Shown here: piece by piece, positions 27,980 to 57,943 of the stretch
Position numbering within the stretch: the first letter of the stretch is position 1
How the letters are laid out: each line of letters starts with the position of its first letter
From: an uncultured Gemmatimonadales bacterium
Lineage (GTDB): Bacteria; Gemmatimonadota; Gemmatimonadetes; Gemmatimonadales; GWC2-71-9
Direction: 5' to 3'
Assembly: GCA_963828735.1 (NCBI GenBank)
Contig: CAWHFW010000003.1
Coordinates: 192,001 to 256,000, forward strand
DNA: 64,000 bases
Program-made: the position numbers and the translations under genes
Notes under the pieces: generated by a model
The model's database searches: none
The model's input: the letters and a program-made list of their open reading frames with translations, nothing else
What the model was told of the DNA's origin: nothing

Positions 27980-28696
27980 ATGAGTCGGAAGATCACGTTG
28001 CGCATGCTGGCGTTGGCCACGGGGATATTTGCCCTCGCGTGCTCCGACGCCGGCACCCCGGCCGAGCCCACGGGCGGCCAGACGGTCCAGTTCAGCGTCG
28101 CGAGCGACAGCGCCCACGCACGGCACGACCAGCTCAAGCAGCAGCTCGAGGAGCGCAAGGCCTACTTCAAGGCGACGAAGGAGGCCAACCGCGAGAACCT
28201 CAGGGCGGCCAGGGCCGAGTGGAAAGCCTGGATGGAGGACTGGAAGGAGCAGTTCAAGATCGAGAAGGAAGCCTGGAAGCGGGCGCATCCAGGCCAGAAG
28301 GGCGGCCCCGTCATCGAGCTCCTGCGCTGCGAGCCGCGCGACTTCGCGAGCGACGCCGCCATCATCGGGCCCAACGGCGGGTCGCTACACGTCGGCGAGC
28401 ACGAGCTGGTGATCCCGAAGGGCGCGCTGCAGGAGGAAGTCCTGATCTCGGCCGAGGCGCCGACCTCCTCCCTGGTGGACGTGCAGTTCGAGCCGCACGG
28501 GCTCGAGTTCCAGCAGCCGGCTCAGCTCAAGCTCTCGTACAAGGGCTGCGTCCGGCCGACCATCAGCGACTTCCTGGTCGCCTACCTGGGCCAGGGGACT
28601 CAGCTGCTCGAGCTGCTGCCGTCGCGCGACATGCGGCTGGATGACGAGGTCGACGCGGACATCGATCACTTCTCGAGGTACGCGATCGCCTGGTAG
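27980..28696 (+). CDS. lipoprotein with coiled coil and ZU5-like domain
   Basis: Lipobox ALAC; charged helix; IGPNGGSL...LVIPKGAL...FEPHGLEFQQPAQLKLSY...IDHFSRYAI. Confidence 0.75.
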   Translation: MSRKITLRMLALATGIFALACSDAGTPAEPTGGQTVQFSVASDSAHARHDQLKQQLEERKAYFKATKEANRENLRAARAEWKAWMEDWKEQFKIEKEAWKRAHPGQKGGPVIELLRCEPRDFASDAAIIGPNGGSLHVGEHELVIPKGALQEEVLISAEAPTSSLVDVQFEPHGLEFQQPAQLKLSYKGCVRPTISDFLVAYLGQGTQLLELLPSRDMRLDDEVDADIDHFSRYAIAW

Positions 28697-28850
28697 CTGG
28701 CGACGCCGGCCGCGGCGAGCACCCCGGCGCCGCGGCTGCAGTCGTCATGCAGTGAGCGAAGGAGCCATGCCCCGAACGCATGGCTCCTTTGCGCAGTCAC
28801 CCGGGGCGCCGGCAGCATCGGCGCTCGTCCTGCTCCACGAGTGAGGTCGC

Positions 28851-30515
28851 ATGGACCGCGACGCAACGTCTCAGACCGCAGCACCGGCTAACGCCGCCGC
28901 CCGGCTCGACGAGGGTCGGCAGGAGGAGCGCGCCGGCAACGTGGCGGCTGCAGAGGCGGCGTACCAGTCGTCCTGCGCGCAGTCCGAGGCAGCGGGCGAC
29001 CGGGTCACGCAGTCGATGGCCCTGCGGCACCTGGCGCTGCTCCAGCATCAGCGCGGCGCGGCGAGCCGGGCGACGGAGCTCGCGCGGCGCGCGTACGACG
29101 TGGCGCTCGCGGCCGGCCAGCGCGAGCTCGCCGCGCACGCGCTCAACGTCCTCGGCGGCTTCACCTTCGAAGGCGGCGACCTGGCCGCCGCCCGCCGCAC
29201 CTTCGACAGCGCCCTCGCGCTCGCGAGCGGCAGCATTGCGCTCCGCGCGCGTATCGAGCAGAACCTCGGCATCCTCGCGACCGTGGAGGGCAACCACGAC
29301 GCGGCCATGGGCCACTACGGGCGGAGCCTCGACGCGTACGTGGCCCTGGGGGACGAGGGCGGCGTCGCGCTCGCGTATCACAACCTGGGCATGATCAGCG
29401 CCGACCGGGAGCGCTGGGAGGAGGCCGACAGCTACTTCCGGCACGCCTTCCAGGGTGCCGAGCGCGCGGGCGACATCCACCTCCAGGGCCTCTGTCTCCT
29501 GAACCACACCGAGGTCCACCTCGCCCGGCAGTCGTACGACCTGGCCCGGGCCGGGATCGAGCGCGCGCTGGGCATCTTCGACCAGCTCGAGGCGCGCATC
29601 GACAAGGCCGACGCCTACCGGATGCTCGGCGCCGTGCACCGGGTCACCGGCCAGCTCGAGTCGGCGGAGCGCAACCTGCTCCGCGCCCGCGGACTCGCGG
29701 ACGAGATGCAGTCGGTGCTCGGCGGCGCCGAGACCAACCGCGAGCTCGCGCTCCTCTATCAGCAGCTCGGCCGCAACCGGGACGCGCTCCACGCGCTCAA
29801 CCTGTCGTACCAGCTCTTCCGCCGGCTCAACGCGCGGACCGAGCTGGTGGACGTCGGGCGCAAGATCGGCGACCTCGAGGGAACCTACCTTCGAGTCGTC
29901 CACGAGTGGGGCCAGTCGCTCGAGTCGGCGGACAGCTACACCCACGGCCATTGCGGCCGGGTGGCGGAGTACGGACTGGCGGTCGCCCGCGCGCTCGGCT
30001 TCGACCCCGGTCAGCTCACGGCGATCCGCCTCGGCGCCTACCTGCACGACCTGGGCAAGGTCCGGATCCCGGAGGAAATCCTCAACAAGCTGGGCAAGCT
30101 CACCGTCGAGGAGTTCGAGACGATCAAGATGCACCCCGTGTGGGGCCTCGAGATGCTGACCGAGGTGGACTTCCCCTGGGACCTCAAGCCGATCATCCGC
30201 TGGCATCACGAGAAGCACGACGGCTCGGGCTACCCCGACGGGCTCAAGGGCGACGAGATCCCGGTGGCCGCGCAGGTGATCTGCATCGTGGACGTGTACG
30301 ATGCGCTCACGACGACGCGGAGCTACAAGCCGGCGTATACGCCGTCGGAGGCGTTGGAGCGGATGGCCGAGGTGACGCACTGGTGGCGGCCGGACGTGTA
30401 CGAAGCGTTCCTCGAGGCCGTGGGGCGGCCGGAGGTGCGGCGGCACGTGGAGGCGCCGCGGCACGTCGCGGCGCGGGCGATCTCGGACGAGGAACTGGGG
30501 GAGGCGGCGGCGTAG
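28851..30515 (+). CDS. TPR-repeat HD-GYP phosphodiesterase
   Basis: N-terminal TPRs; YTHGHCGRV, LHDLGK, HHEKHDGSGYPDGL, DVYDALTTTRSYK. Confidence 0.93.
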   Translation: MDRDATSQTAAPANAAARLDEGRQEERAGNVAAAEAAYQSSCAQSEAAGDRVTQSMALRHLALLQHQRGAASRATELARRAYDVALAAGQRELAAHALNVLGGFTFEGGDLAAARRTFDSALALASGSIALRARIEQNLGILATVEGNHDAAMGHYGRSLDAYVALGDEGGVALAYHNLGMISADRERWEEADSYFRHAFQGAERAGDIHLQGLCLLNHTEVHLARQSYDLARAGIERALGIFDQLEARIDKADAYRMLGAVHRVTGQLESAERNLLRARGLADEMQSVLGGAETNRELALLYQQLGRNRDALHALNLSYQLFRRLNARTELVDVGRKIGDLEGTYLRVVHEWGQSLESADSYTHGHCGRVAEYGLAVARALGFDPGQLTAIRLGAYLHDLGKVRIPEEILNKLGKLTVEEFETIKMHPVWGLEMLTEVDFPWDLKPIIRWHHEKHDGSGYPDGLKGDEIPVAAQVICIVDVYDALTTTRSYKPAYTPSEALERMAEVTHWWRPDVYEAFLEAVGRPEVRRHVEAPRHVAARAISDEELGEAAA

Positions 30516-30579
30516 GGCCTTCCCGGCCGTGTAGGCCTGACGCCGGGCCCCCTTCGTTCTGCGACGATCGCCCACCATT

Positions 30580-30835
30580 ACGCGCAACGCTAGCCATCGC
30601 CGTCCCGACCAGCTTCCCATCCTCCACGATCCTGTCCCCGTCCACCTCGACCGTTGCCCGGGTGGTCGGGATCCCGACCCCGACCGCCCCCGACACCTTA
30701 TTCGAGCCGCCGAGGAGCTGGTTCTCGCCCAGGCTCATGGTCACGAACCCGGCCGCTGCGCCAGGACGGTAGTCGGCATTGTCCTCCATCACCTTCAGCT
30801 CGGGATTGAGCCCGAGGGTGAGCGTCCCATCCGGT
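30580..30835 (-). pseudogene. 3' remnant of an M29-like aminopeptidase
   Basis: TLTLGLNPELKV...AAGFVTMSLGENQLLGGSN...RATVEVDGDRIVEDGKL; the N-terminal bulk is missing where the RiPP locus begins. Confidence 0.6.
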
Positions 30836-30901
30836 GCAGGCCGCGCCGTAGGCCTTTGAGGTTGGGTCGAGGGGCTGATGCCGAAGTAGCCCCCTGGTGC
30901 G

Positions 30902-31826
30902 ATGTCGGTTTCGCGGTACCATAGTGTTCCGACCTATGAGGGTATGCGCCTGCCCTTCGAGCCCGACCATCAGTACGTCCGCCATCCCTTCGCGACCGCG
31001 ATAACGACCGCGGGCCGGGTGCTGTTCACCCGGCCCGGCGGGCCGGTTAAGCACTGCACGAACCCAGACCCCGGGGCTGCATCGGAGTTGTGGGACGCCC
31101 TGGCGAGGCCGATCCGCGGACGCGACCTGGTTTCCCGGTCCCGCCTGGAGCCGAGAAGTGCCGCGGCTCTCATGGAGTTTCTGCTCGAGCACCAGATTGT
31201 CATGCCTTGGACCCTGACGGAATCCGAGCCCACCGACTCACGGCCGGATCTCGAGGACACGGTGCGGCCCTGCCATCATCTCGTCTTGGGTATCACGGGC
31301 GCGGTGCAAGCCGTGTTCGCTCCGCACATCGTTCAGCGTCTCGCATCCCACTTCACCGATCGACTCGACGTAGTGCTCACCGAGTCCGCCCAGAAGTTCG
31401 TACAGCCGAGGTCGCTGTCGGTTCTGGGCGTTTCCGTCTGGTCCGATCCGTTTGACCCTCTGGAGGCCGGCAGGGTCATCCACATCGAGCTGGCGACACA
31501 GGCGCAGCTGGTCTTGGTGTATCCAGCCACGGCGGATGCGATCTTCCGCCGGCGCACGGCTCTGCTCCGATCTCCTCTCCTTGATCGTGAGTGCCACGGT
31601 AGCGCCGGTCGTCATCGTGCCCAGCATGAATCCCGCCATGTGGCGGCACCCGCCCACCCAACGCAACCTCCGGACATTGCGGGACGACGGTGCCTTCGTG
31701 GTGGAGCCCGGTCCGGCAAGGTCGGCGGCGAGTCGAGCGGACAGCGAGGCGGGCGGACCCGGACTAGGACCGGACGCCGCGAACCTGATCGGCATTCTGG
31801 AAGCCATCCTGCATCTCAACAGATGA
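30902..31826 (+). CDS. HFCD (LanD/EpiD-like) flavoprotein Cys decarboxylase with N-terminal RRE-like domain; apparent frameshift at ~31550
   Basis: LVLGITGAV, VVLTESAQKFV, HIELA, YPATAD, then in a shifted frame LCSDLLSL..VPSMNPAMW. Restoring two single bases gives IFRLAHGLCSDLL, matching the HFCD consensus. Confidence 0.85.
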
Positions 31827-32025
31827 ACCCCTCCGGTGACTGGGGGAGATGGAACTGCTGGGGATCCTCGACCACCTCGATCTCCTCCGACTCTGATACG
31901 GTTACACCGTACTCGCCTAACACTGTCCTCGGGTCTGCCTTGAACCGTTCTCTGAAGGCCGGATCGGCCCACGCCCGCTCTACGATCTGCCGGTAGATAT
32001 CAAATTTGTCAGGGGGGATAGCCAT
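31816..32025 (-). CDS. RiPP precursor with nitrile-hydratase-like leader (NHLP) and C-terminal Cys
   Basis: IVERAWADPAFRERFKADPRTVLGEYG..IEVVED..HLP leader; GAGGAGG RBS 5 nt before ATG; 54 bp downstream of YcaO; ends GFIC*. Confidence 0.88.
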   Translation of the reverse strand: MAIPPDKFDIYRQIVERAWADPAFRERFKADPRTVLGEYGVTVSESEEIEVVEDPQQFHLPQSPEGFIC

Positions 32026-32079
32026 ACGTGCCTCCTCGGTGCGTGGTGCGGTTGAGCTACCGCCTCAGGACGAGGCCAA

Positions 32080-34251
32080 TCAAAGGAAGAAGCCGATAGG
32101 GTTCAGCTCCGCTTCGACACGAGGCCGGTCGAGCCACCCCGCCTCGACCGGAGCGGTATACAACCGGCCCGGCGCGAACCGCGCCCGGAAGTGCCGGAGC
32201 TCCGGGACGATCGCCTTGATCACCGGGACGCCGATGTCGGGACGGGTCTGATCGAGAAACAGCAGCTTCAGGCCGCGGCGCGCGAGCAGCTCTTCGCAAC
32301 GCCCGAGATCACGCGCGAGATCGGTCGTCGCCAAGGGAGGCACGTCGTCGAGGCGTACAAGCGGAACCGGTGCTGGAGCGAGATACGGCTGATCCACGAT
32401 GGTGGCCTCGCGAAGCCAACGGTCCACCGCAGGATCCAGGCTTCCAGACCTCTCCGCCGATGCAATGCACGTTCGCACCTGCTCCATCTCGGTCAGCGCC
32501 CGCCTGAGCGCCGCCGCAGGGTCGAGATGGGTGCCGAAGCCGAGTACGATGCGTTCAGGACCTGCGGCGGTCTGCCGGGAGATCGCCGCGAAAGTAGGAA
32601 TGCCGATGTCGCTAGTGATATCGATGGCCCATAGCTCCCTGCCCAGTGAGCGATAGTGCGCCACCAAGCTCTCGCAGTAAGGGGCTTGGGTGCGGGCGAG
32701 ATCGATTCCTGGCCGGGCGACGCGGTTGTACCACCAGAGCGCGAGGCTGTCCCGCTCGACCAGCTCCATCAGGCCCCGCAGCAGCGCCTCCTCTCGGGAG
32801 CTCGCAGCGGCACTGCCGCTCGGATCCGGCAGGCAGTACGCCGCCCGATCCCCCAGCGGATAGCCGGTGTAGAGCAGCATCGTCGGCAGATATCTGCAAT
32901 CGTCACCCGAGAGCGACCGGAGCGGAGTCCATTCGATCGGATCCGCCGGATCGAGCGGGAGAGGAACGTCGCTGGTGCGGGGGGCGCCCGCATCGGGGCG
33001 CTCGCGCCGGCGGTACTGCGCCTCGCTGAACTGCATGCACTCATTGGGGTGGATCGCGGCCGGCCCGAGCGCTTCTAAGGAAGCCAGAACGCGAGGCTCG
33101 TCTCCTTGAAAGACCCCGGAATACCGCTCGATTGCCTCGCCGAGCGCGCTCACGCGCGCCTCTTCGTCAGTCATGCCCTTGCCGGTGCCGCGATCCAACC
33201 CGGTCTCAGACTGGACGCGCTCCTCGTGCAGCGGGTCCGCCGCATAGCGGGCGACATGGACGTAGAGCGGTGCTCCCTCCTCGGATGGCAGCCGCCGCAG
33301 GTCCACGGCGACCCCGACCACGGGATCAACCAGGCCCTCCCAGCGGTGAAGCGTCGCTACGTCTTCGCCTTCCAGGTACGTGCCTCCTTTGGGCAGCCGA
33401 AGCGGTGAGGTGGAAAGCCGGCCGTATAGCGCGGGGTCCCCGCACGCCGGGCACTGCGGCCTCCAAGGAACCCGGTGTGTCCGCAGCGGTTTGCCTATGG
33501 AGTCGAAACTGACGATCGCGTCGGGGGCGGCAGCGGTGAGTTGGCGTGCGAGGAGGCCAGCGAAGAGGGCCGAGCCCGGCCACCCGGGGCTGAGGGGCCG
33601 CACCGGGCGCGACTGTCCAAGGAGCCGGTACTCGTGCGGATGATTCCGTCTCAGACGGTCCGCTAGACAGCGCCAGCAGCAGCTGGCATGGGGATGAAAG
33701 TGCGGGCCGATCCAGATCGCCGGACCGACAGGCCGGGCCAGCAGCCACGATTGGCCGGTTTCGAGCGCGGCCTGATTGAGCCCGGCGAGCTCCGGGCGAA
33801 GGTAGCTGTCCGTCAGAACGACGGAGAGCGGGGCCGAATCGTCGAGCACGAAGCCGCAGGCCTGAAGCGCCTCGGCAGCGACGCCGCTCGGGACGTCTCC
33901 GAGAGTCGTCAGCGCGATCCGCACTCCGGCGGCGGTGACGGGACCCCCGGAAGCTGCGCCGCGCTTCCCTGCATCCGACCTCTCCGCGGCGCAGGGCGCA
34001 TCCACCACACACCCCAGGCGTTCCAACTGCCACAGCGCGTACCACACGTCCACGCGCCGCCAGCCGGCCTCGAAGTGCTTGATCAGTAGTTCGGTGCTGG
34101 TCGGGCCATTTAGGAGCGGAAGCAGATGCTCGTACAGTCCGGTTGGAAGCAGAGCATCGCCGTCGTCGGAGAGGAGCAGCACTCCCCGGCCTTCCCAAAG
34201 CAGGGCTCGGTGGTCGTCCTTCAACCTCGGGTGCTGTAGCATCACCGACAC
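32080..34251 (-). CDS. fused RRE-E1(ocin-ThiF)-YcaO cyclodehydratase
   Basis: N-terminal RRE; TDSYL, WIGP, CWRC and RPQCPACG; YcaO motifs GKG..SALGEAIERYSG, EEALLRGLMELVERD, RALTEMEQ; ends ELNPIGFFL. Confidence 0.93.
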   Translation of the reverse strand: MSVMLQHPRLKDDHRALLWEGRGVLLLSDDGDALLPTGLYEHLLPLLNGPTSTELLIKHFEAGWRRVDVWYALWQLERLGCVVDAPCAAERSDAGKRGAASGGPVTAAGVRIALTTLGDVPSGVAAEALQACGFVLDDSAPLSVVLTDSYLRPELAGLNQAALETGQSWLLARPVGPAIWIGPHFHPHASCCWRCLADRLRRNHPHEYRLLGQSRPVRPLSPGWPGSALFAGLLARQLTAAAPDAIVSFDSIGKPLRTHRVPWRPQCPACGDPALYGRLSTSPLRLPKGGTYLEGEDVATLHRWEGLVDPVVGVAVDLRRLPSEEGAPLYVHVARYAADPLHEERVQSETGLDRGTGKGMTDEEARVSALGEAIERYSGVFQGDEPRVLASLEALGPAAIHPNECMQFSEAQYRRRERPDAGAPRTSDVPLPLDPADPIEWTPLRSLSGDDCRYLPTMLLYTGYPLGDRAAYCLPDPSGSAAASSREEALLRGLMELVERDSLALWWYNRVARPGIDLARTQAPYCESLVAHYRSLGRELWAIDITSDIGIPTFAAISRQTAAGPERIVLGFGTHLDPAAALRRALTEMEQVRTCIASAERSGSLDPAVDRWLREATIVDQPYLAPAPVPLVRLDDVPPLATTDLARDLGRCEELLARRGLKLLFLDQTRPDIGVPVIKAIVPELRHFRARFAPGRLYTAPVEAGWLDRPRVEAELNPIGFFL

Positions 34252-34421
34252 TCGCAGCGCGCTCGGAGGCGCGCCCCTGTCCCCGTCCCGCGCGACTCGG
34301 CCAGGGTGTCCAGATGGGAGTTACGCCCGTAGATTTGCGATGGGCGGCTCGACTGTTACGGGCCAACCTATGGGCCGGGCCGGGGCTTGGGCTAGGTCGC
34401 CCCACTTCCCAGGGACCCCAC

Positions 34422-37400
34422 GTGTCCAAGACAGGAGTGACCTGCCCATCCTGCGGCGAGACCGCTCCGGATGAGGCAAGCGCCTGCCGGTCCTGCGGGG
34501 CCTCGCTGAGCGAGGCCCATTTGAGGCCCGGCTCCTACCGGCGGCTTCAGGAAGCCGTGGCTGACCGGTACGTGATTGAGCGCCGTCTCGGTCACGGCGG
34601 AATGGCTCTCGTCTATCTGGCACGCGACCTGAGGCACGACCGCCTCGTCGCTCTCAAGGTCCTCTCGCCGGAGCTCGCGGCCAACCTTGGGGCCGAGCGT
34701 TTCCTTCACGAGATCCAGGTCGCCGCACACCTTCAGCACCCACACATCCTGACGCTGCTGGACTCGGGCACCTTCCAGTGGGATCCCGGCATCCCGGGCT
34801 TGTACTACGTCATGCCCTACGCCAGGGACGAATCGCTCCGAGAGCGGATTGAGCGTGAGACTCAGCTTCCCCTCGCAGAGGCCCTCCGCATCACCCGCGA
34901 AGTTGCCGGCGCCCTCGATTACGCCCATCGCGAAGGGGTAGTGCATCGGGATATCAAGCCAGGGAACATCCTGCTCTCCGACGGGCATGCCCTGGTCGCC
35001 GACTTCGGCATCGCGCGTGCGATCCACAGCTCTGCCGGCGACCGCTTGACGGACTCAGGTATCGCCGTCGGCACTCCCTCCTATATGAGCCCAGAGCAGG
35101 CCACGGGTCGTGAGGCGGATGCGAGAAGTGACATCTACAGCCTCGGCTGCGTTCTCTACGAGATGCTCGTCGGCGAGCCGCCGTTCACCGGTCCGACCCG
35201 GCAGGCGATCGCCGCCCGGCGGCTCACCGAACCTGTTCCGCACATCAGAACCGTGCGTGAGAACGTGCCCGAGCGCGTGGAACGTGTTATCCGCAAGGCG
35301 CTCGCGAAGGTGCCGGCCGACCGCTTCGCCACAGCGGCAGACATGGCCGAGGCACTCGGGGCCGTGAGGCCCAGCTCGGGCACGGCGGTGGCCGGCTCCA
35401 AGCGCCGGGCGAAGCGCTCTTGGCGGCTCTCCGCTCGTCTCACCTGGGGGCTGCTAGCGGCGGTGGCGGCTGTGGCGCTCGCGGTCGTGTGGGCACTTCG
35501 GCGCCCCGCAGGGGCGCCAGAGGATTCTCTAGTCTCACGAGTGGCCATCCTGCCGTTCGCCGCGCAAGGTGGGGAGCAGACGAATCAGCTGAGCGGAGCC
35601 ATCGTCACCCTTCTCAGCTCCGCGCTCGATGGCGTGGGGGAGCTGCGGACAGTGGCTCCGAGCGCTGTGTTAGGGGCGGCGGGTGAAGGGGCCGCGCAAC
35701 CGCTGGACCAGAAGCAGGAGCAAGCTATCGCCACCCGGCTCGGCGCGCGGCGGTATGTCTCGGGCACCGTCGTGGAAGGCGCCGACGGTCGCGTGACCGT
35801 CAGCGCCTCGGCGTACGACCTGCGGTCCGGTCTTCTCTCGGAGCGGATCACCGTCGAGGGCAGAAAGCCGGGTGACATATTCCGCCTGGTCAACGACCTG
35901 GCGGTGCAGTTGCTGGGCGCGTTCGGCATTCACCAGGCGCCGCCCCGTCTGGAGAGCATCAGCACCAACTCGGTTGTCGCCCTCAACGAGTACCTCAAGG
36001 GTGAGAGCGCGCTGCGTCGCGGCGACTATGGACAAGCCGTGACCTCCTTCGGGCACGCGGTGGCGGCGGACAGCCTCTTCGCTCTGGCCTGGTTCCGGCA
36101 AGCGTACGCCCTGACTTTCACGGAAACGCCTGAGGGGGGGGAGCGCCCACTGCGCCGGGCGCTTGCCCTGGCGAACCGGCTCTCCGTGCGGGACCGCCGC
36201 CTCGCGGAAGCGTTCAACGCCGCGATCAACGTGGATCCCCAGCGAGCCGACCGCCTCTACCGCGCCCTGGTGTATGAGTACCCGGACGATGTGGAGGCCT
36301 GGTTCGGTCGCGCGGATGTGATGCTTCATTTCGGGCCGCTGTATGGACTGGCCATGGACTCGCTGAGCTACGCGTTCCAGCGCGTCCTTTTCCTGGACCC
36401 CGCTCATTCGGAGGCTCGGACCCACCTGCCGTGGGCAGCGGCACTGGATCTCCGGCTTGGCTTGCTCGACTCGGCCGCTCGTGCGCTCTCGACCGATTCG
36501 AAGGGATACTACACTCCAGTATTTCGAATCTTCCGCGCTTTCAGCAAACGCGACTCCGCAGCCGAGGACTCGGCGATCTCCGGCTTTCCCACCATGGACG
36601 ACCTGCAACGCCTGTTGGCGGTCAACATGACGGCCACGCTGCAGGACCCGGCAGCAACCGAGCGGCTAGCGCTTCGGCTGTTCACCGACCCCAGCCGTCT
36701 GCCCGAGGTGCAGGCCTTCGGCCACGTCATGGCGGCCTATCTCGAGCTGGCGCGGGGGCGAGGACACGCTGCGTCCCGGGAGCTCGACGCGGCCGACAGG
36801 CTGGATCCCGCCGCGGCGCTGGAGGGACGCGCGCTACTCGTCCTCCACCCCATGTGGGAGCAACCAGATTCCACGGTTCGAAAAGTCCTCGTCCGCCTGC
36901 AGCGGTGGAATGCCGCCACTGCCGCCCCCAGCATCTCGGCCAACCCTTGGCTGGTCCCCCACGACAGCCTTCATCAGCAGATCCGGACCTTCCTGCTGGG
37001 GGCCCTCGGCGCTCGACTGGGCGACGGCGCAGAAGCTCGGCGTCGGGCACGCGAGCTCCTGGAGCTCGACACGGCGACGACGCAAGGAGTCGTCGGCCGG
37101 GCGCTGGGGCATGAGATCCTGGCCTACACGGAAGCGCGGGCGGGGAAGGCAAGGACGCGCTCGGGGAGCTCGATCAGAGCAGCCTGCGAGGCCCTCAGGC
37201 TCGGGTCTGGCAGCGGGCGTACAGCTCACCATTCATGTCCCAGGCCCAGGCGCGGTATCTCCGAGCGGGCATTTTGAGTGATCTCAAGCGGGACCCCGAG
37301 GCGATGAGGTGGTACCACTCGCTGTGGATGGCGAATGCCTTCGATCTCGCCTTCCTGGCACCCGCGCACCTCGGGCAGGCGGAGATCGAGGCGCGCGAGG

Positions 37401-37522
37401 GTAACCGTCAGAACGCGCTGCAACACTACAGGGCCTTCGCGGCGCTCTGGAAGGAGGCGGATCCCGAGCTGCAATGGAGGATCGATCGTGTCAGAAGCAG
37501 TATCGCCAAGCTCGCACAATGA
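34422..37522 (+). CDS. zinc-ribbon Ser/Thr kinase with TM and extracytoplasmic TPR region; frameshift ~37150
   Basis: CPSCG..CRSCG; GHGGMALVY, HRDIKPGN, DFG, GTPSYMSPEQ; TM; C-terminus in ORF 37235-37522 (LWKEADPELQ). Confidence 0.9.
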
Positions 37523-37601
37523 CGGGGGTCGTACTCCAGCTCGAGAGCCTCGAGCTCCTGGCCCTGACGAGGGGCACCGCGACACCGCCACGTTGAGCGG
37601 G

Positions 37602-38171
37602 CTACTTCCCCTTCTCGTACGTCCCCACCAGCTCCACCTTCTCCAGAATGTGCCCCTGCATCGCCCGCTCGAGCGCCGCCTTGGTCGGTTCCTTCAGATC
37701 GCCCAGCGTGGCGTCGAGCGCGTACAGCTTGTGGAAGTACCGATGCCGGCCGACCGGCGGGCAGGGACCGCCGTAGCCCACACGCTTCCAGTCGTTCACG
37801 CCCTCGCGGGCGCCGGCCGGGAGGCTCTTCGACGAGGCGGCCTTCGGGAGCTCGGCCGCCGACGCCGGCATGTCGTACACCACCCAGTGCACCCAGGTCG
37901 TCTTCGGGGCCTTGGGGTCGGGCGCGTCGGGATCGTCGACGATCAGGGCGAAGCTCTTGGTCCCCGCGGGCGCCCCGCCCCACGCGAGCGGCGGCGACTG
38001 GTCCTGGCCTTCGCAGGTGAACTCCTTCGGGATCTGCCCGTTGGCCGTGAACGCGGGCGAGCTGATCGAGAGCGTCATGGGTGCCTCCTGCGAGGGGGCG
38101 GGCCGGGGCGGGAGCGGCCCGATCAGGATCAGGCAGGCCGTGAGCGGGGCGGCGGTGCGAAGCGAGTGCAT
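37602..38171 (-). CDS. YbhB/YbcL (PEBP, Raf kinase inhibitor-like) protein
   Basis: FTCEGQDQSPPL, DPDAP, WVHWV, YGGPCPP, HRYFHKLYALD; start at 38171 (signal peptide) or 38078. Confidence 0.93.
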   Translation of the reverse strand: MHSLRTAAPLTACLILIGPLPPRPAPSQEAPMTLSISSPAFTANGQIPKEFTCEGQDQSPPLAWGGAPAGTKSFALIVDDPDAPDPKAPKTTWVHWVVYDMPASAAELPKAASSKSLPAGAREGVNDWKRVGYGGPCPPVGRHRYFHKLYALDATLGDLKEPTKAALERAMQGHILEKVELVGTYEKGK

Positions 38172-38708
38172 TGGCAGGGTCCTCCAGTGGCCTTCCTTAT
38201 AGTAGCGCCACGGGATTCCAGCAGGTGAAGCGGGACCGCCACTGACGCCGTGGCATCCGCCGCGTGAGCCGCGCCGCCACTCCCCTGCGGGTCCCTTGCG
38301 ATCGCACCCGCGTTCAGGCGAGATGTGCGCGAGTGACTGGGTTGCCCACACGGGCGAGGGTCCGATGCGGCGCTCGAGCTTTCGCTGGCGCGGCACGGAC
38401 CGACGACAACCTGTCGGCCCAGTCGGACGAGTTCGGCGACCGGTTCGCGGGCGCGCTCGACGCGCCGCTGCTCCACTTCTACCATTACTGGTGCGGAGAC
38501 GGGCGGGAGGGAATCGACTTCACGTTCAGACGCGGTGGCCAAACAACACGACGGCGCACTCGCCCCGAAGGTCGAGCAAACGTCTGCCGCAAAGCGTAGA
38601 ACTGCAGCAAACGGGTCTGTAGGTGCTTGTCAGAACCGTCGCCAAAATGTAACGTGACCCTACTCCTGCTTTGCATAGGGCCTTAGCCCCGGTCCCCCGA
38701 GAGCGACT

Positions 38709-39746
38709 GTGCTCCGTTTTGTGAATGACCCGACCTTCATTGTGCCGGACCATCTCGTCGCTCCGAGCGCCGAGCCATTGATTGTTCACCAACACACCAA
38801 TCCATCTCTGAATTCGGCCATCGTCCTCTTCGTCCACGGCCTGGGAGGCGACCGGTACGCTACCTGGGGCAACTTTCCAGCCTTTCTTTTTCAGGAGCTT
38901 CCCGGGTGCGACATCGGTCTGTACAGCTATCGCACCTTCCTGGGCAGGATCAAGTTTTGGAGGTCGATCAGCCTCGATGCGGAAGCCGAAGCTTTTGCGA
39001 ACCTGCTGCGAGGGCTGGAAGGCTACGACTCAATCGTCCTTGTCGGGCACAGCATGGGCGGGCTCCTCTGTAAAGCAGTCGTCGCCTACCTGGTCGATTC
39101 TTTGGAAACCGCTACGCTCGATCGCATCAAAGGTGAAGTATTGATGGCCGCCCCACAGCTCGGTTCGCTCTGGATCCCGCGGGCGTTCGCCTGGCTGACG
39201 AGCGATACCAGGGCGCTGAGCGCTCACTCCGATTTCGTGCGCCGAATTGAGAAGACCTTCACCAATCGCGTAAACGCCCGGGCAAGTACCGGGGACCCTT
39301 CCCTAGTTCCGCTTCCTGTGTGGATCGTCGCGGCTGCAAACGATCGCTGGGTGGACCCGTTGAGTGCGGGAGTCGGAATCCCTGATGTCCAGAAGATGCT
39401 GGTCAGGGGGCTGCACACCGAGATCGTGAAGCCGACGAGCACGACGAGCGATGCCTACGTGTACGTTCGACGCCTCATTCAGACAGTCTGTAATACCGAG
39501 CCGCGCCTTCTGCCGACCGCCATCGAGCTGCATCAGCCCATCGCGGAGGACAGGACGGTCGTCCGCCGGCTTCTCGTTGGGGCAGTTACGTACGGTGCGA
39601 CCGCCCTCCTCGCGAGCACGGCCCTGTACCAAGCTCTGCAGGTCATTAATCCGAAAGTCGCAGGGACGGCGCTCCTCATAGCATGGGTCAGCCTGCTCCT
39701 GGTGGCAGGGTTCGCGCTGGTTCTCGTCCGCCCACAGAGCTCATAG
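38709..39746 (+). CDS. alpha/beta hydrolase (PGAP1/DUF676-like) with two C-terminal TM helices
   Basis: FVHGLGG, GHSMGG, DRWV, HTEIVKP; hydrophobic C-terminus. Confidence 0.8.
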   Translation: MLRFVNDPTFIVPDHLVAPSAEPLIVHQHTNPSLNSAIVLFVHGLGGDRYATWGNFPAFLFQELPGCDIGLYSYRTFLGRIKFWRSISLDAEAEAFANLLRGLEGYDSIVLVGHSMGGLLCKAVVAYLVDSLETATLDRIKGEVLMAAPQLGSLWIPRAFAWLTSDTRALSAHSDFVRRIEKTFTNRVNARASTGDPSLVPLPVWIVAAANDRWVDPLSAGVGIPDVQKMLVRGLHTEIVKPTSTTSDAYVYVRRLIQTVCNTEPRLLPTAIELHQPIAEDRTVVRRLLVGAVTYGATALLASTALYQALQVINPKVAGTALLIAWVSLLLVAGFALVLVRPQSS

Positions 39747-39756
39747 CGAGGACGAC

Positions 39757-40421
39757 GTGAGCGAAATGCAAGCCCGCAATCGGTGGAAGTTCGAGCTGCT
39801 GCTCAGGTTCCTGGCGGTCGCGCAGATTCCCCTTCTGGTCTTTTCGCTGGCTGTTGTCCTCTATCTGCAGGTTAAGGCTCGCCCGCTTTCGGCAAGAGTC
39901 GCCGCGTTGAACGACACGATCGTGTTGAAATCAGTGAGCGTCGATTCATTGAGGAAGGAGGAGGCTGACGTTCGAGCACGACTACGAACACTTGCCGCTG
40001 CAATCGACACGGTTCAAGCTCATGTGGATTCACAGAAAGCAGGTGGGGCAGCCGTTCAAGCTCAGACCCCACGCGCGAACAGTCCTCCGTCGACGCTGAA
40101 GGAAGGCTGGGTCTATCTAGGGGCGTACGATAGCGCCTCAACCACGTGGTCGAGACGGTATTTCTCGTTTGGGGCTCAAACAAAGCCCGCGAGTCTGGAA
40201 GGAAAGACAGTTTCCGCGAATGCTCAGGTCAACGTGCGTCGCAACCGGTTCTACGAGCCTGGCTACGACACAATCGAGGACGTGCTCCGGCCCCGAAGCC
40301 AAGTGACAATCACCGAGATACGGTCGTGGAACGACGCGGGCACTTCATCTGGGCTCACGTGCGATTCTCGGTACCGAACCGATCGAAACCCGCCGGAGTC
40401 GGCGTCAAGACTTACCCCTGA
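39757..40421 (+). CDS. hypothetical membrane protein (TM, coiled coil, C-domain); small indel ~40341
   Basis: GAGGA RBS after the hydrolase stop; the mirror copy (57944-58477) gives the in-frame end WNDAGYFIWAHVRF...KTYP*. Confidence 0.7.
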
Positions 40422-40501
40422 CCTGTCGGCAGCCCCGAGCCGCATCATATCAGTAGTGGCGGCGGCACGACGACTACGACGCGTCACAACCGCGCGTAGC
40501 C

Positions 40502-41831
40502 TCAGCGCGGCCGCGCCGCCTCGAACTCGTGGGTGAGCCGGTGCCGCGCGGTACGGGGCAGCAGGAGCGCCGCCACGAAGCTCACCACGCCCGCCGCGGA
40601 CAGGTACACCGCCGGCGCGAGGGGCTTACCCGTCCGGGCGAGGAGCCACGCCCCGATGAGCGGCGTGGTGCCGCCGAGCAGCGCCATCCCGAGGTTGTGC
40701 GCCACCGACACCACGGTGCAACGCACCCGCCACGGCGCCAGCTCGGCCATGGTGGCGGGCAGGGCGCCGCTGCCGGCGGCGACCAGCAGGGCGAGGCTCA
40801 CCTGCCCCACGATGATGCTGCCTGTCTCCCCTCGGGTCATGAGCGACATCAACGGGTAGGACAGGAGCGCCATCGCGGCACCCCACGCAACCAGCACTGG
40901 TCGCCGGCCAATTCGGTCGCTCAGCGCGCCCGCCGCCAGCGAGGCAACGAGCGACAACGCCATCGCGAGTGTGTTGATCCCCAGCGCGGTGCGCGCCGGC
41001 ACCTGGGCCACCTGCGCGAGCCAGGTCGCCGCGTACACGAACGTCATGTAGAACCCGACGGCCAGGCCGGCCACCAGCGCCACGAGGTGCAAGGTGGTCA
41101 GCCAATGGGAGTGGAGCGCCTCGGCCAGCGGCGACCGGGACGGAGCCTGGTGGGGTACCCGCTCGATGTAGTAGCGCCGGATGGCGATCCCGCCCAGGCC
41201 CACGCAGATGCCCAGGATGAAGGGGATGCGCCAGCCGTACGCCATCACCGCGTCGGGTGTCATCACCGTATTCACGATCGCGCCGGCCGCGGAGCCGAGC
41301 AGCGTGCCCGCGAACGCACCGACCGGCCCCCAGCTGCCCATCCACCCGCGCCGTCCCGGCTCCGACCCCTCGACCAGGAACACGGTCGAGGCGCCGTATT
41401 CGCCGCCGACCGCGAGGCCCTGCAACAAGCCGGAACCCGAGCAGGAGGATCGGCGCGGCGATCCCGATCGTCTCAGTGCTCGGCAATACGCCGATCAAGA
41501 AGGAGGGCAACGCCATCGCCATCACGGACCAGAGCAGCGCCTGCTTACGTCCGAACTTGTCGCCTACCCAGCCGAACAAGGCCCCGCCCACCGGCCGCAT
41601 GATGAAGCCGGCCGCGAAGGTGCCGAAGGCGGCGAGGAGCGAGGCGGTGGGGTTGTGGGCCGGGAAGAAGTGAGCGCCAATTTGCCTGGCGAAGAAGCCG
41701 AAGAGGGCGAAGTCGTACCACTCGAGCACGTTGCCAGCTACACCTGCGATGACGCCGCGGCGGACGGCACGCGGAGTGTGGAACTCCTGCGTGATCACGC
41801 CGGGCGGGATGATTTGGGGGATGGTGGCCAT
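40502..41831 (-). CDS. MFS transporter (MHS/ProP-like), left-arm copy with frameshift ~41428
   Basis: GNVLEWYDF, MRPVGG, QGLAVGGEYG; intact copy at 56535-57863. Confidence 0.9.
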
Positions 41832-42013
41832 GGGATCGTCGTGATGAGGGATGCCGCAGGGTAAGGCGCGCGCGGTTAGCGCGCCAGAGTCGCAGCGGGC
41901 CTGGACATCTGAAAGTGGAGTAGCACGAAAGGTCGATTGACACCGCGACGGACCAAAAAACATACTGGAAGCGCCACCGCACCACCCTTCCATCCCCCCG
42001 GTGAGGAGTTCGA

Positions 42014-42603
42014 ATGTTTCGTGCACGCCCCGTCGCAACCCTCCTGGCGGCCGGCCTGGCCGTTGCCGCCTGCTCTGATAGCTCGCCCGTGGCGCCCGAG
42101 ACCGGCTCCGCCCCGTCCTTCCGCACCGAGCACAGCCCGCCCGGCCCCGGGCACAGGTCAGCCGCTCGGACGCCCAGTTTTTTTCCACCTTCACCGAGCC
42201 CGGCGCGCCCTACTTCGTCGCGATCGGCCTGAACTCGAGCGACGTCGTGGAATTCTGCAGCGGCGGCGACCCGGAGCTGGGCGGCTTGAAAACTCACTTC
42301 GTCGAGCAGCCGCACGGCGGGGCGCAGACCCTGTTCAAGTCGGCGGGCAAGGTTCCCCTGCTCCTCTTCCCGGCCGGCACGGAGGATATCTGCGACGGCT
42401 CGCCAGTCGCCGAGGGAACCGGGACCTACACCGACGGCTCCGCCAACCTCTTCAGGGGCATCGGCCAGGGGACATCCGGGTTCCGGATCCGTGGCCAGGT
42501 GACAGACCAGGCGGGCACGCGGCTCCACGTGCTCGTGGCGGTCCACAGCCAACTCGGGCCGGGGGGATTCGTGGACATCGTGAATAAGATCGAGGTGAAG
42601 TGA
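42014..42603 (+). CDS. hypothetical lipoprotein, left-arm copy with frameshift ~42150
   Basis: Lipobox VAAC; intact copy at 55762-56352. Confidence 0.75.
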
Positions 42604-42629
42604 GCGCGCAGGTCGGCACACGGGCGCCG

Positions 42630-42946
42630 GCGAGCGACGGCGGCGAGCAGGCCCGCCGGGGCGCTGCAGTCGCCGGCACGTACGCGTGGGGTTGCTACTA
42701 AGGGCGGAGGTCGTGCCGTCGACTGACGCGTCCTCTGGGCCTGCCGCCGCCGTCGCTCGCGCGAAGCTCCGATGCTAGAGCGGCGCGCGTCCGCGCATTC
42801 CGGAATGCTCGGGGCGCGGGGGCGACGGGATGGCTCCCGCAGGGCGCGTCAGTCGACGCCACTACCTCAGCCTCTGGTAGCAGCCCAACGCCTGCGTGGC
42901 GGCGACTGCAGCGCCCGAAGGGAGCTATCCCGTCGCCCCCGCGCCC
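42630..42946. repeat. pair of ~130-bp structured palindromic elements sharing an inverted 72-bp core
   Basis: Cores 42659-42730 and reverse complement of 42845-42916 are 61/72 identical; each has its own flanking inverted repeats. Confidence 0.75.
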
Positions 42947-42966
42947 TGCGCCGACACGCCGGATGC

Positions 42967-44866
42967 CTACGCGCGCGGATAGCCGATCGCCGCGAGATCC
43001 GCCGAGATCTCTTCCAGGCTCGCCGGATCATCGATCGTCGCCGGCACCGTCCACGCCACCCCGTCCGCGATCTTCTTCACCGTCCCCCGCACGATCTTTC
43101 CCGACCGCGTCTTGGGCAGCCGCTTGACGACGGTCGCCGTCTTGAACGACGCCACCGGCCCGATCCGCTGCCGCACCAGCTCCACCAGCTCCGCCACCAG
43201 CTCCACCCGATCCCGTACCGCCCCGTGCTTGAGCACCACCAGGCCGAGGGGCACCTCGCCCTTGAGCGCGTCGCTGACGCCCACCACCGCGCACTCCGCG
43301 ACGTCCGGGTGCGCCGCCAGCACCTCCTCCATCTGGCCGGTGCTGAGCCGGTGACCCGCGACGTTGATCACGTCGTCGGTGCGGCTCATGATCCAGAGAT
43401 AGTCGTCCTCGTCCTTGTAGCCCGCGTCGGCCGTCAGGTAGTAGCCGGGATAGGCGGTGAGGTAGGTGTCGCGGAAGCCCTGGTCGTTGTTCCAGAGCGT
43501 CGGCGTGGCGCCCGGGGGAAGCGGGAGCTTCATGACGACGTTGCCCGATTGGCTCGGGGCCGTCGCCCTGCCCTCGTCGTCCAGCACCCGCACGTCCCAA
43601 CCCGGCACCGGTACCGAGCACGAGCCCGGCTTGACCGGCAGCAGCCCGAGCCCCGCGCAGTTGCAGCCGACCGGCCAGCCGGTCTCGGTCTGCCACCAGT
43701 GGTCGATCACCGGAACGCCGAGCTGCCGCTCGGCCCACTCGAGCGTCGGCGGGTCGCAGCGCTCGCCGGCCAGGAAGAGCGTGCGGAAGCGTGAGAGATC
43801 GTAGCGGCGGATGTGCTCGCCGTCGGGATCGTCGCGCTTGATGGCGCGGAACGCGGTCGGCGCGGTGAAGAAGACGCCGACTCCGTGCTGCGCGATGACG
43901 CGCCAGAACGCGCCCGCGTCCGGCGTGCCGACCGGCTTCCCCTCATAGAGCACCGTCGTGTTGCCGTGGAACAGCGGGGCGTAGACGATGTACGAGTGGC
44001 CGACGGTCCACCCCAGGTCCGACGCGGCCCAGTACACCTCGCCCGGCTCGACCCCGTAGATGTTGCGCATGCTCCAGGTGAGCGCGACCAGGTGGCCGCC
44101 GTTGTCGCGCACGATGCCCTTGGGCTGCCCGGTCGTGCCGGAGGTGTAGAGGATGTAGAGCGGATCGGTGGCGAGGACCGGGACGCAGTCCACCGGACTG
44201 GCGCCGGCCGCGAGCTCGCGCCAGTCGTGGTCCCGCCCCGGCACCATCGTCGCCTCGCCTTGGGGACGCTGGAGCACGATGCAGCACTCGGGCTTGGCGT
44301 CGGCCAGCTCGATCGCCCGGTCGAGCAGCGGCTTGTACGGCACCACCCGGCCGATCTCGATGCCGCAGGAGGCGCTCAGGATCGCCTTGGGCCGGGCATC
44401 GGTGATCCGGCTGGCCAGCTCGGGCGACGCGAACCCGCCGAACACCACCGAGTGAATCGCGCCGATGCGGGCGCAGGCCAGCATCCCGATCACGGCCTCG
44501 GGGACCATCGGCATGTAGATCACGACTCTGTCGCCGCGGCCCACGCCCTTCCCGGGCCAGCACGCCCGCGAACCGGGCGACCTCGTCGCGCAGCTCGCGG
44601 AACGTGTAGGTCCGAACCGTGGAGGTGACCGGGCTGTCGTAGATCAGGGCGAGCTGGTCGGCGCGGCCGGACTCGACGTGGCGGTCGAGGGCGTTGTAGC
44701 AGGTGTTGGTCTCAGCGCCGGGGAACCAGCGGTAGAGGGGCGCGCGGGAGTCGTCGAGGACCGCGTCCCAGCGGCGGTACCAGTGCACGGCCTCCGCCGC
44801 CTCGGCCCAGAAGGACTCGGGGGCGGCCTGCCAGCGCGCGTAGACCTCGCGATACGTGGAGGGCAC
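42967..44866 (-). CDS. prpE: propionyl-CoA synthetase, left-arm copy with frameshift ~44550
   Basis: YILYTSGTTGQPKG, DHWWQTETG, INVAGHRLSTG, LPKTRSGKI. Confidence 0.88.
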
Positions 44867-45181
44867 CTGGCCAAGCTAGGCGCGGGGTGGGGCGTGGCCA
44901 AGGGTCGGGTTGAGTCGGGGGAGCTCCGAAGCCAGTAGGAATGAGGGGGAACATCGGCCGGCCTGGCACATTCCCTCTCAGGTGGCGAACGGCCAGAACA
45001 CCCAGGCGGTCGGCTCCAGGGCGCGCGTCGCGTGCCATCCGTCAAGGCAGCGCGGCGACTGCCGATAGCCCCCTGCATGCAACGATCCGCACACGGTCTG
45101 CGCACGGGACCGAACCTTGCAGACTTCTCTGCGATGGACAAGCTGACCCACCAGCCAAGCAATCTTTTCTTCGGAGATGCC

Positions 45182-45784
45182 ATGCGCACCCTCTCCGCCC
45201 CGCGCCAGGCCGCACTCGTCCTCGCACTTGCGGCGTTCGCGGCCTGTGACGGCCAGGCCCCCAACGCCACTACGTCGTTCTCGGTCATGCTCAAGGACGC
45301 CCCGGGTGACGTGCAGCACGCTGTGGTGACGATCAGCGAAGTGGACCTGGTGGGCTCGGGCGGGGTGCAGGTCCTCACCCAGACGCCGACCACCGTGGAC
45401 CTGCTCACGCTCGCGGCCGACGCCACGACTCTGGTGCAGGGCATCGAGGTCCCCTCCGGCAGCTATGAGCAGCTTCGCTTCAAGATCACCGGGGCGTGTC
45501 TCGCGGTGGAGAATGGCACCGGCGGAAGTGACGTGTACGCGACCGACGGCTATGACGCCACTCAGTGCGGCGGCGAGGCCACCGGCGCGCTGCAGGCGCC
45601 GAGCTTCGCGCAGTCGGGGCTCAAGGTGACCATGGCCGGCAACGCGCTGGAGCTCACGGGACCGGAGAAGATCGTGCTGGTGGATTTCGACGTGAGCCAG
45701 AGCTTCGGGCATGAGGCAAGCGGGTGGGTCATGCACCCGGTCGTGACCGGCGGTGAGATCACGACGGAGCCGCCGGCGCCGTGA
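45182..45784 (+). CDS. DUF4382-like lipoprotein (left-arm copy)
   Basis: Lipobox FAAC; VMLKDAPG, VDLLTL, GSYEQLRF, SGLKV, VLVDFDVSQSF. Confidence 0.8.
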   Translation: MRTLSAPRQAALVLALAAFAACDGQAPNATTSFSVMLKDAPGDVQHAVVTISEVDLVGSGGVQVLTQTPTTVDLLTLAADATTLVQGIEVPSGSYEQLRFKITGACLAVENGTGGSDVYATDGYDATQCGGEATGALQAPSFAQSGLKVTMAGNALELTGPEKIVLVDFDVSQSFGHEASGWVMHPVVTGGEITTEPPAP

Positions 45785-45789
45785 TTCCC

Positions 45790-47965: not shown

Positions 47966-47970
47966 GGCCG

Positions 47971-48455
47971 ACGTATTGCTCCTCGGCCTGGTATTCCACG
48001 TCGAAAACGTGGCTGAGCTGGGCAAGGTCCAGCTCGGCGAGATCCGGATCGAGGCGGACATCGTGAGCGAGGCTGGCGTCGAGCACCGCACGACCGCTAT
48101 GCCGGTGTTCGCGAACCTCGACGGCGAAGACCGCGTCGAGCCGGTGGTCGAGCAGACCTTCCTCCGGTTCCAGGCTGCACGTGCGCGCGAAGAGGCGGTC
48201 CGCAGCGCGGACAACGGTGCGTTCGATGCGGCGGCCGCCGGGCTCCGCGAAGCGGCCGCCGGGCTCGCGCCGTACGCCGGCGCGCCCGAGGTACGAGAAG
48301 AGATCGAGGATCTCCGTGCCGAGGCGGACCGGCTGGAGCAGCGGCGCTACGAGGCCACCGATCGGAAGTACCAGGGCGCCCGGGCGATGGCGGCCATGCA
48401 GCTCAAGTCGGACTACGTGCAGCGGGTGAGCCGCCGTCGGCCGCGGGAGTCCTAG
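47971..48455 (+). pseudogene. 3' part of a larger protein (resembles the C-terminus of VWA-domain proteins), 5' end lost at the fold-back
   Basis: ...LGEIRIEAD...VEQTFLRFQAARAREEAVRSADNGAFDAA...EIEDLRAEA...TDRKY; no start codon of its own. Confidence 0.55.
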
Positions 48456-48536
48456 CTGGCGCGGCATCGCGAAGTCCCCGCGACACCCGCTCACGAAGTC
48501 CTGCGACCACTACCCTGTAAGCGGAATGGAGTCTCT

Positions 48537-48845
48537 ATGCGCGTCTGTTGGGGTCCCGCCGTACTGGCCTTGCTGGCCGGCTGCGGCGGGACGGCCCTCG
48601 TCATCGACTCCGACACCTCCTGGGCCGGCGGCGTCGATAGCTACGGAGCGATCTCCGGCGAGGGAAAGGCGGAGTACGACCTGGGCGACGCGGGGCGCTC
48701 ATGCTGGACCCTCGCCAAGACCACGGAGGCAGGCACGCTGAGAGTGTACTCGAGGACGTCGCAGTGGTTCGGCCTGGGTGACGAGGTGAACGGCGAGTCC
48801 AGGACCAGCGCCCCCATGGGGACTGTCACGGGGTGCGTCCAGTGA
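48537..48845 (+). CDS. small hypothetical lipoprotein
   Basis: Lipobox LAGC; IDSDTSWAG...CWTLAKTTEAGTLRV...TSAPMGTVTGC. Confidence 0.75.
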   Translation: MRVCWGPAVLALLAGCGGTALVIDSDTSWAGGVDSYGAISGEGKAEYDLGDAGRSCWTLAKTTEAGTLRVYSRTSQWFGLGDEVNGESRTSAPMGTVTGCVQ

Positions 48846-51286: not shown

Positions 51287-51367
51287 GTATACCCCCAGGC
51301 GAAAGCGAGGACAGAGTAGGTTGGGACGAATCAAGGTTAGCGTTGCGGCTCGCCGATCGCTGAGTCG

Positions 51368-57863: not shown

Positions 57864-57943
57864 GGCTACGCGCGGTTGTGACGCGCCGTATTCGTCGTGC
57901 CGCCGCCACTACTGATATGGTGCGGCTCGGGGCTGCCGACAGG

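Follow-up and report, generated by a model that had tools for sequence, protein, structure and literature searches.

An RRE-fused flavin decarboxylase paired with an azoline-forming YcaO in a Gemmatimonadales bacterium: a proposed oxidase-free route to a des-carboxy C-terminal thiazole

How can an azoline-forming cyclodehydratase and a flavin-dependent cysteine decarboxylase both serve a precursor peptide that offers a single cysteine at its very end? This question is raised by a locus for a RiPP, a peptide made by the ribosome and then modified post-translationally, in a 64,000-nucleotide stretch of DNA, here called the window, from an uncultured Gemmatimonadales bacterium (assembly GCA_963828735.1, contig CAWHFW010000003.1, positions 192,001 to 256,000). 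The original prediction had described a minimal three-gene locus consisting of a YcaO gene of the RRE-E1-YcaO type (RRE, RiPP recognition element), a precursor of the NHLP type (having a leader peptide that resembles nitrile hydratase) and a convergent LanD-like homo-oligomeric flavin Cys decarboxylase (HFCD). The three genes were found at the claimed positions, and the HFCD stop overlaps the precursor 3' end by 11 bp (31816-31826). However, the locus is not limited to three genes, as a divergent receptor-type Ser/Thr kinase gene with a TPR sensor (34422..37522, + strand) belongs to it too. We propose, with a probability of about 0.6, that the HFCD converts the terminal Cys to an enethiol and that the YcaO cyclodehydrates it, which would yield a des-carboxy C-terminal thiazole with no oxidase involved.

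The three biosynthetic genes

30902..31826, + strand: RRE-fused homo-oligomeric flavin Cys decarboxylase (LanD-like HFCD), ~307 aa with an assembly frameshift allowed for; PF02441 on both halves
30965..31213, + strand: predicted N-terminal RRE of the HFCD, residues ~22-104, a three-stranded sheet with three helices
31481..31483, + strand: HFCD His194, at the alignment position of EpiD's catalytic His67
31550..31562, + strand: assembly frameshift in the HFCD, two bases short; contigs of X5, X8 and X10 each have two more bases
31620..31631, + strand: HFCD PSMN motif, its Asn aligned with EpiD Asn117 and MrsD Asn125
31816..32025, - strand: 69-aa precursor with a shortened NHLP fold and a single, C-terminal Cys (codon 31819-31821)
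32080..34251, - strand: fused RRE-E1-YcaO cyclodehydratase of the LynD/TruD/MusD type, 723 aa, start possibly the ATG at 34242

The flavoprotein shows the features of the HFCD fold, namely PF02441 with the catalytic His and the Asn of the PxMN motif. The His is invariant in 17 of the 17 rows of alignment A2 and was aligned to the EpiD His in 3qjg through the intact G424 homolog, and the Asn is retained, with His instead in two homologs. In EpiD His67 is catalytic, and roles of His67 and the Asn in HFCDs have been described (PMC8549060). An N-terminal extension of ~110 aa is common to all 19 HFCD homologs obtained from 743 candidates. The window HFCD is 75% identical to the intact 308-aa homolog P0006, whose predicted model (pLDDT 81.6) matches the RiPP decarboxylases SpaF (7cfu) and TvaF (6jls) as well as CoaBC; among solved structures SpaF and TvaF are the nearest. 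Superposition of residues 22-104 of this model against the PbtF RRE (8t19_A) gave a Z score of 8.2 and an rmsd of 2.3 over 81 of 86 residues, and comparison with the TigE RRE gave a Z score of 7.2. A Z score of 8.2 is near the level of common arrangements; the topology, the TigE match and the Atlas leads for the N-terminus (MftB/PqqD, 0.87-0.89, leads only) agree with it, and the predicted RRE fusion is thus supported.

A separate CoaBC is encoded on contig C1, whereas the HFCD carries the RRE and has no CoaB half. LanD enzymes are distinguished from phosphopantothenoylcysteine decarboxylases by the lack of a reprotonating Cys in the clamp. This Cys is absent from the window HFCD and most homologs and present at one position in L013, L014, L016, P0012 and P0022, a test that does not discriminate here because the genome's own CoaBC also has no Cys there. 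A contig scan with the N-terminal half of the HFCD alone yielded 10 loci, nine of them distant CoaBC-like and one spurious.

The identification of the flavoprotein as an HFCD was therefore right, but its frame is split at ~31550-31562 in the assembled window, which the original prediction had overlooked. Contigs from four of 20 sequencing runs (X1, X5, X8 and X10; X1 is possibly the source sample of the assembly) were compared with the window. Those of X5, X8 and X10, from three independent studies, restore one HFCD frame, which marks the break as an error of the assembly. The X1 contig pieces end at the break with matching loose ends, and other breaks occur elsewhere in the same assembly. The Cys69-stop of the precursor is spanned without any difference by contigs of X1, X8 and X10 and reached only marginally by X5; the precursor does not run past Cys69.

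The YcaO protein matches PF02624 (307 bits), TIGR03604 (248 bits, above cut-off) and TIGR03882 (above cut-off), with a weak winged helix-turn-helix match to PF21084, whereas the thioamide-type model TIGR03266 gave 139 bits against a cut-off of 365. The closest solved structures by phmmer are LynD (2e-141), TruD (1e-139) and MusD (2e-133), and the K-x-G, E-x2-E-R, E-x2-E-R-D and R-x3-E motifs are retained. It is thus an RRE-E1-YcaO as predicted, of the azoline-forming type of the azol(in)e proteusins. The genome contains this one YcaO only, and a YcaO match was absent in 60 relatives.

The precursor ends GFIC-stop, and its sole Cys is the last residue. It matches the NHLP structure 8tb1 (E 5e-5) and NHase_alpha above cut-off, and it falls below the cut-off of TIGR03793 (42.6 vs 50.9). 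The precursor is thus NHLP-like but shortened, and the missing double-glycine leader end had been overlooked. As had been claimed, none of LanB, LanC, HopA1, azoline oxidase, C39 peptidase or ABC transporter was found among 17 neighbouring window genes scanned.

Recurrence of the trio and the position of the HFCD

The same layout of HFCD, precursor and YcaO was found in 10 loci (the window, G424, G685, G492, G574 and L012-L016). In a metagenome scan, for which the best 80 of 389 confirmed loci were kept, the five closest loci (A2 score >= 368 bits) all read HFCD(+), precursor(-), YcaO(-), and no LynD-type YcaO was seen in the next 11 RRE-HFCD loci, several of which are short. One locus protein is labelled Gemmatimonas sp. 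SG8_17 in its source record. Within the genus G424 is the only one of 102 genomes carrying the trio. A draw of 401 family genomes contained a full-length RRE-HFCD in four, the window's included, and all four belong to a trio, in line with the expected co-occurrence of such flavoproteins with YcaO and NHLP genes. A search of 401 genomes from the phylum to which G727 belongs, made without a positive control, gave no RRE-HFCD, and neither did plasmids at 80% coverage (48 records, all < 60% identity).

All 11 precursors of these loci end in Cys (FIC, ITC, LIC, AIC or FICC) and so present the free C-terminal Cys that HFCDs use, none has the double-glycine leader end L..[VI][AS]GG, and their tails, ~9-20 residues long, close with one or two Cys. 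Tail length and the sequence before the last three residues are highly variable. The last 10 residues are free of Ser/Thr in seven of the 11, and neither residue occurs in any of them at -3 or -5, the aminovinylcysteine (AviCys) positions; Ser occurs at -6 in three precursors of genus g1. Five precursors end CC and four others have tail Ser/Thr, while the G685 and G492 precursors have no Cys but the terminal one and a tail free of Ser/Thr, leaving both enzymes only the terminal Cys as a target. The suggestion that both enzymes converge on this residue is therefore probably correct. A precursor profile search returned 71 matches, 18 of them ending in Cys (including the top 15, eight of them new), which indicates breadth and not enrichment because the profile favours a terminal Cys.

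The terminal Cys as a by-product of the antisense overlap was considered and rejected, since it is kept in the non-overlapping loci L013-L016 and G574 and since the overlapped HFCD Arg codon is AGA or AGG, which account for ~4% of the training set's Arg codons. The precursor Cys-stop (window 31816-31826) has as its antisense the HFCD C-terminal L-[SN]-R, and 15 of 18 full-length HFCD homologs have [LV]-[SN]-[RKT] at the C-terminus, a hint, at the protein level only, of the same overlap.

A YcaO match was present in 23 of 400 family genomes, and 20 LynD-type regions were taken, leaving aside G504 (contig end) and two distant hits. In gene order, the HFCD occupies the slot of the azoline oxidase, because a ThcOx/SagB oxidase lies directly after the precursor in 16 of the 17 YcaO-NHLP loci with no adjacent RRE-HFCD, whereas the oxidase profile TIGR03605 matched in none of the 10 HFCD loci (L012, L013 and L016 being short). 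No SagB/azoline oxidase was found in the window's genome; in G574, an HFCD locus, a SagB-like gene lies on another contig. Among the 17 sister precursors three end in Cys, that of G699 included.

The sister module of kinase-TPR, YcaO, short NHLP and ThcOx oxidase is present in 16 family genomes (L126-L142; e.g. G699:C12, G584:C18, G556:C80), and frequently has a convergent flavin amine oxidase after it. Its precursors have no double-glycine end and carry tails such as QFTIPL and DICKISC, and the module seems to be uncharacterised in its own right. The hybrid locus of G699 (L126:4982-10379) contains the oxidase, a stand-alone 193-aa HFCD, an S8 peptidase and an amine oxidase, and its precursor ends TLVC.

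Among 32 distant RRE-HFCD representatives scanned, fusion to a methyltransferase was found in 17 and to LanC in one. Other distant RRE-HFCDs (L017-L020, L023 and L027) adjoin LanC, a peptidase-containing ABC transporter (PCAT) or a TfuA-YcaO; in L023 and L027 the peptides encoded upstream terminate in Cys. Given these fusions and neighbours, the wider RRE-HFCD family serves several RiPP types. P0122-P0167 are RRE-HFCD-methyltransferase fusions of ~490 aa, possibly making S-methyl enethiol ends, and P0034 is the RRE-HFCD-LanC fusion. On two lower-GC contigs (L030:920-1762 and L031:7661-8576) a stand-alone HFCD lies directly 3' of a short open reading frame ending VSC; no other RiPP enzyme was seen nearby.

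Proposed chemistry and its alternatives

We propose that the short NHLP protein docks on the RREs of both enzymes. The HFCD would then oxidatively decarboxylate the C-terminal Cys to a (Z)-enethiol (-46 Da), following the known chemistry in which oxidation of a free terminal thiol by HFCDs leads to release of the (Z)-enethiol (PMC11350588, PMC8549060). YcaO enzymes activate the amide before a Cys for sulfur attack, and MprC depends on MprD for the step to the thiazole (PMC12455567). Here the LynD-type YcaO would use ATP to activate the preceding amide, onto which the sulfur of the enethiol would close with loss of water, giving an aromatic, unsubstituted thiazole and a total shift of -64.016 Da. 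A ThcOx/SagB oxidase would be unneeded because the C=C bond is already present in the enethiol. The reverse order, in which a thiazoline acid is formed first and decarboxylated by the flavin enzyme second, would give the same product and fits the free-thiol mechanism less well; we weigh the two orders at roughly seven to three. The capped tail would end in X-Ile-thiazole, or in thiazoline-thiazole where the precursor ends CC, and may stay on the small protein or be released by a protease. Such a route accounts for the invariant terminal Cys, the missing acceptor residue, the missing oxidase and the slot exchange. Of the products suggested in the original prediction, the decarboxylated terminal thiazole is our best guess, in view of the HFCD standing in the oxidase slot of sister loci, while a ring to Ser63 conflicts with the tails that have no Ser/Thr in the last 10 residues and with the empty -3 and -5 positions.

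Several points weigh against this proposal. No precedent was found for an enethiol as a YcaO substrate or for a thiazoline as an HFCD substrate. Free enethiols are unstable unless captured and hydrolyse to the aldehyde (bioRxiv 2020.02.13.947028, PMC10989515). The window YcaO has D-P-S-G where LynD has D-S-N-G, and Arg in place of Gln544; the variant is common to the subclade, D-P-S/N-G being present in 20 of the 35 rows. No way to remove the leader and no export route were found. Searches of the window's genome (97.5% complete) returned no C39 peptidase, with the control giving hits in 7 of 14, and no TldD, with controls giving hits. The slot exchange is not absolute, as G699 carries both the oxidase and a stand-alone HFCD 4 kb away and G190 has neither. 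On the tree of YcaO proteins the HFCD form makes up three groups; a single origin was nevertheless not rejected (p-AU 0.36), and only 1 to 3 independent pairs exist. Because the HFCD loci may share one origin, the co-occurrence counts are not independent and Fisher values from them are overstated.

The missing protease could be explained if the YcaO activated an amide further upstream, with the enethiol or, as in MusD, water attacking it to give a small macrocyclic thioimidate or thiolactone or to free the tail in an ATP-dependent manner. One of the three closest structures is MusD, a YcaO with ATP-dependent amide-cleaving activity (PMC10885120), the nucleotide-site motif is altered, neither C39 nor TldD was found in the genome, and all 11 precursors are without a double-glycine motif. 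However, LynD and TruD score as high as MusD or higher, in the sister loci this YcaO family comes together with a thiazoline oxidase, indicating azole formation, and an upstream site sits poorly with tails that vary so widely before the last three residues; we regard this as unlikely. Separate or stalled products, that is, a free enethiol or aldehyde tail from the HFCD and, from the YcaO, nothing beyond thiazoline formation on a penultimate Cys or oxazoline formation on Ser/Thr, would have targets in the five CC precursors and the four others with tail Ser/Thr, and the methyltransferase domains in 17 of the 32 distant representatives suggest capped enethiol end points. G685 and G492, in which the YcaO is left with only the terminal Cys, and the instability of free enethiols make this outcome improbable as well.

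An AviCys-type ring between the enethiol and Ser63, with the Ser activated by the kinase or an outside dehydratase, appears quite improbable. It would suit the Ser at -6 of the genus-g1 precursors and the distant RRE-HFCDs next to LanC or TfuA-YcaO; LanD enzymes are reported to couple slowly to unmodified Ser/Thr with the same, isobaric -64 Da, and thioamitides to use LanKC-like enzymes from outside the cluster. The seven tails with no Ser/Thr and the absence of any at -3/-5 nevertheless speak against it, as does the kinase, which is of the membrane receptor type and not an APH-type peptide kinase. HopA1 was not found in the genome, where its control gave hits; LanC and LanB were unmatched there with silent positive controls, a LanC-domain tblastn was empty, and linaridin CypH/L was not searched. 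Both HFCD and kinase are broken in the assembly, which would also fit a locus that has decayed in this organism through two frameshifts and gives no product. This is very improbable and for the HFCD largely refuted, since its frame was restored in three studies, the assembly contains further breaks along with a fold-back duplication of 18.6 kb, and intact copies exist in G685, G492 and others.

The enethiol-to-thiazole proposal can be compared with known systems. The azol(in)e proteusins (MprC/MprD/MprE; nostatin A NstC/D/E, PMC11583998) share the fused RRE-E1-YcaO and have an NHLP precursor where the window has an NHLP-like one, and the sister form also has the flavin oxidase. Their leader has the double-glycine end L..[VI][AS]GG and is cut by a C39/C1A protease, whereas the HFCD loci have the RRE-HFCD in place of the oxidase, a short leader with no such end, no PCAT and a linked receptor kinase. 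The cyanobactin heterocyclases LynD, TruD and MusD have the same domain order and catalytic motifs as the window YcaO; unlike in cyanobactin clusters, no PatA/PatG (S8) protease or cassette precursor was seen among the locus neighbours scanned, the precursor is NHLP-like and the D-P-S-G variant is present. The LanD/HFCD AviCys systems (EpiD, MrsD, CypD, TvaF, SpaF, and SycD with the radical SAM enzyme SycC) agree in HFCD fold, His, Asn and C-terminal Cys substrate. In these the acceptor Ser/Thr/Cys stands two or four residues before the terminal Cys (bioRxiv 2020.02.13.947028), whereas the present loci have a fused RRE, no acceptor at -3/-5, no conserved dehydratase, lyase or radical SAM partner, and an azoline-forming YcaO instead.

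Bottromycin and lyngbyapeptin/barbamide are alike in the predicted des-carboxy C-terminal thiazole end. A P450 (BotCYP, after YcaO thiazoline formation in bottromycin) or a di-iron enzyme (LynB7, in lyngbyapeptin/barbamide) decarboxylates the thiazoline (PMC11350588, PMC10127204). The present loci differ in the flavin HFCD replacing haem or di-iron, in decarboxylation that probably precedes ring closure and in having no follower peptide. Bottromycins are defined by a follower peptide, two stand-alone YcaOs and a P450 decarboxylase; here the Cys is terminal, the genome has one YcaO and no P450 was seen among the neighbours scanned. Thioamitides also combine YcaO and HFCD in one cluster. Their YcaO is a TfuA-dependent thioamidase that does not act on the terminal Cys, whereas the YcaO here is of the TIGR03604 type, and no TfuA or HopA1 was seen among the neighbours of the trio loci scanned. 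By the defining tests the locus fails as a canonical proteusin, for want of a double-glycine end, and likewise as an AviCys RiPP, a thioamitide, a bottromycin or a cyanobactin.

In the open literature, supplements excluded and subscription journals mostly outside, no pairing of an HFCD with an azoline-forming YcaO and no such RiPP cluster tied to a receptor kinase was found described. The proposed chemistry is probably new. If the proposal is true, the enethiol would be a new nucleophile for YcaO enzymes, the HFCD a stand-in for an azoline oxidase, and the pair a two-enzyme, genetically encoded means of furnishing peptides or proteins with the des-carboxy thiazole cap in which bottromycin, barbamide and lyngbyapeptin end. 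Three small genes would be enough to test the system in E. coli.

Linked receptor kinase and further observations

34252..34421, no strand: divergent YcaO/kinase intergenic region, 170 bp, putative shared control region by sequence
34422..37522, + strand: receptor-type Ser/Thr kinase with zinc ribbon, kinase domain, one predicted membrane helix and TPR-type sensor (Pfam, hydropathy)

A divergent Ser/Thr kinase lies upstream of the YcaO in all seven HFCD loci with upstream DNA, adjacent in six and with a C25 peptidase between in one. In the 16 oxidase loci it is directly upstream in 12 and nearby in two more, and the contig ends in two. The window's genome contains 93 Ser/Thr kinase loci in 4.78 Mb, an estimated ~2% of genes, so that linkage by chance is unlikely; it was rejected on the recurrence at the loci and on a sensor match specific to HFCD loci. 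The post-kinase part of the window kinase is 48-82% identical to kinases of other HFCD loci, as against 36% at best for paralogs. This match spans different YcaO subgroups, and oxidase loci carry a different sensor group. Among 103 genus genomes a sensor match above 41% was found only in two trio bearers, the unpublished G464, G003 and G106 being counted only in the negative background of this comparison. One hydrophobic helix (hydropathy 2.19) with an Arg-rich N-side follows the kinase domain and suggests a TPR sensor facing outward. The kinase frame is broken near 37140-37160 in the assembly, and the C-terminal piece matches intact homologs. No sigma-70 consensus was found in the 170-bp intergenic region, and a promoter/terminator scan was at chance level.

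The role of the capped product is less certain than its formation; most likely it would be a signal for the kinase or the kinase's regulated output, though the kinase might only regulate the locus. A fuller picture, which we hold to be doubtful, would make the capped product the ligand of its cognate kinase-TPR, formed by a flavin-based, oxidase-free third route to a des-carboxy thiazole, with the sensor type switching along with the oxidase type, in an undescribed peptide-signal system of Gemmatimonadota-type soil bacteria. The kinase linkage in both HFCD and oxidase forms points to RiPP-based signalling and gives a handle on the large unexplained kinase-TPR families of uncultured soil bacteria. 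If the ligand reading were true, it would give the ~90 orphan kinase-TPR receptors of a genome of this kind their first class of ligand.

Rfam gave no match in window 28000-40000. MFS transporter genes of similar type adjoin the HFCD in G424 (L095:7814-9142) and lie 6 kb from the locus in the window (40502-42194); none was seen at the other trio loci. Two NHLP-like matches on contig C1 were considered as precursors and rejected as real nitrile hydratase. Frameshifted nitrile hydratase alpha/beta genes at G000:C1:188400-190000 (L097) likely reflect another assembly error. The window also contains an 18.6-kb inverted duplication (39889-58477), whose arms are 98.9% identical and whose centre is 87%; it is probably a long-read fold-back artefact, and genes are counted twice there.

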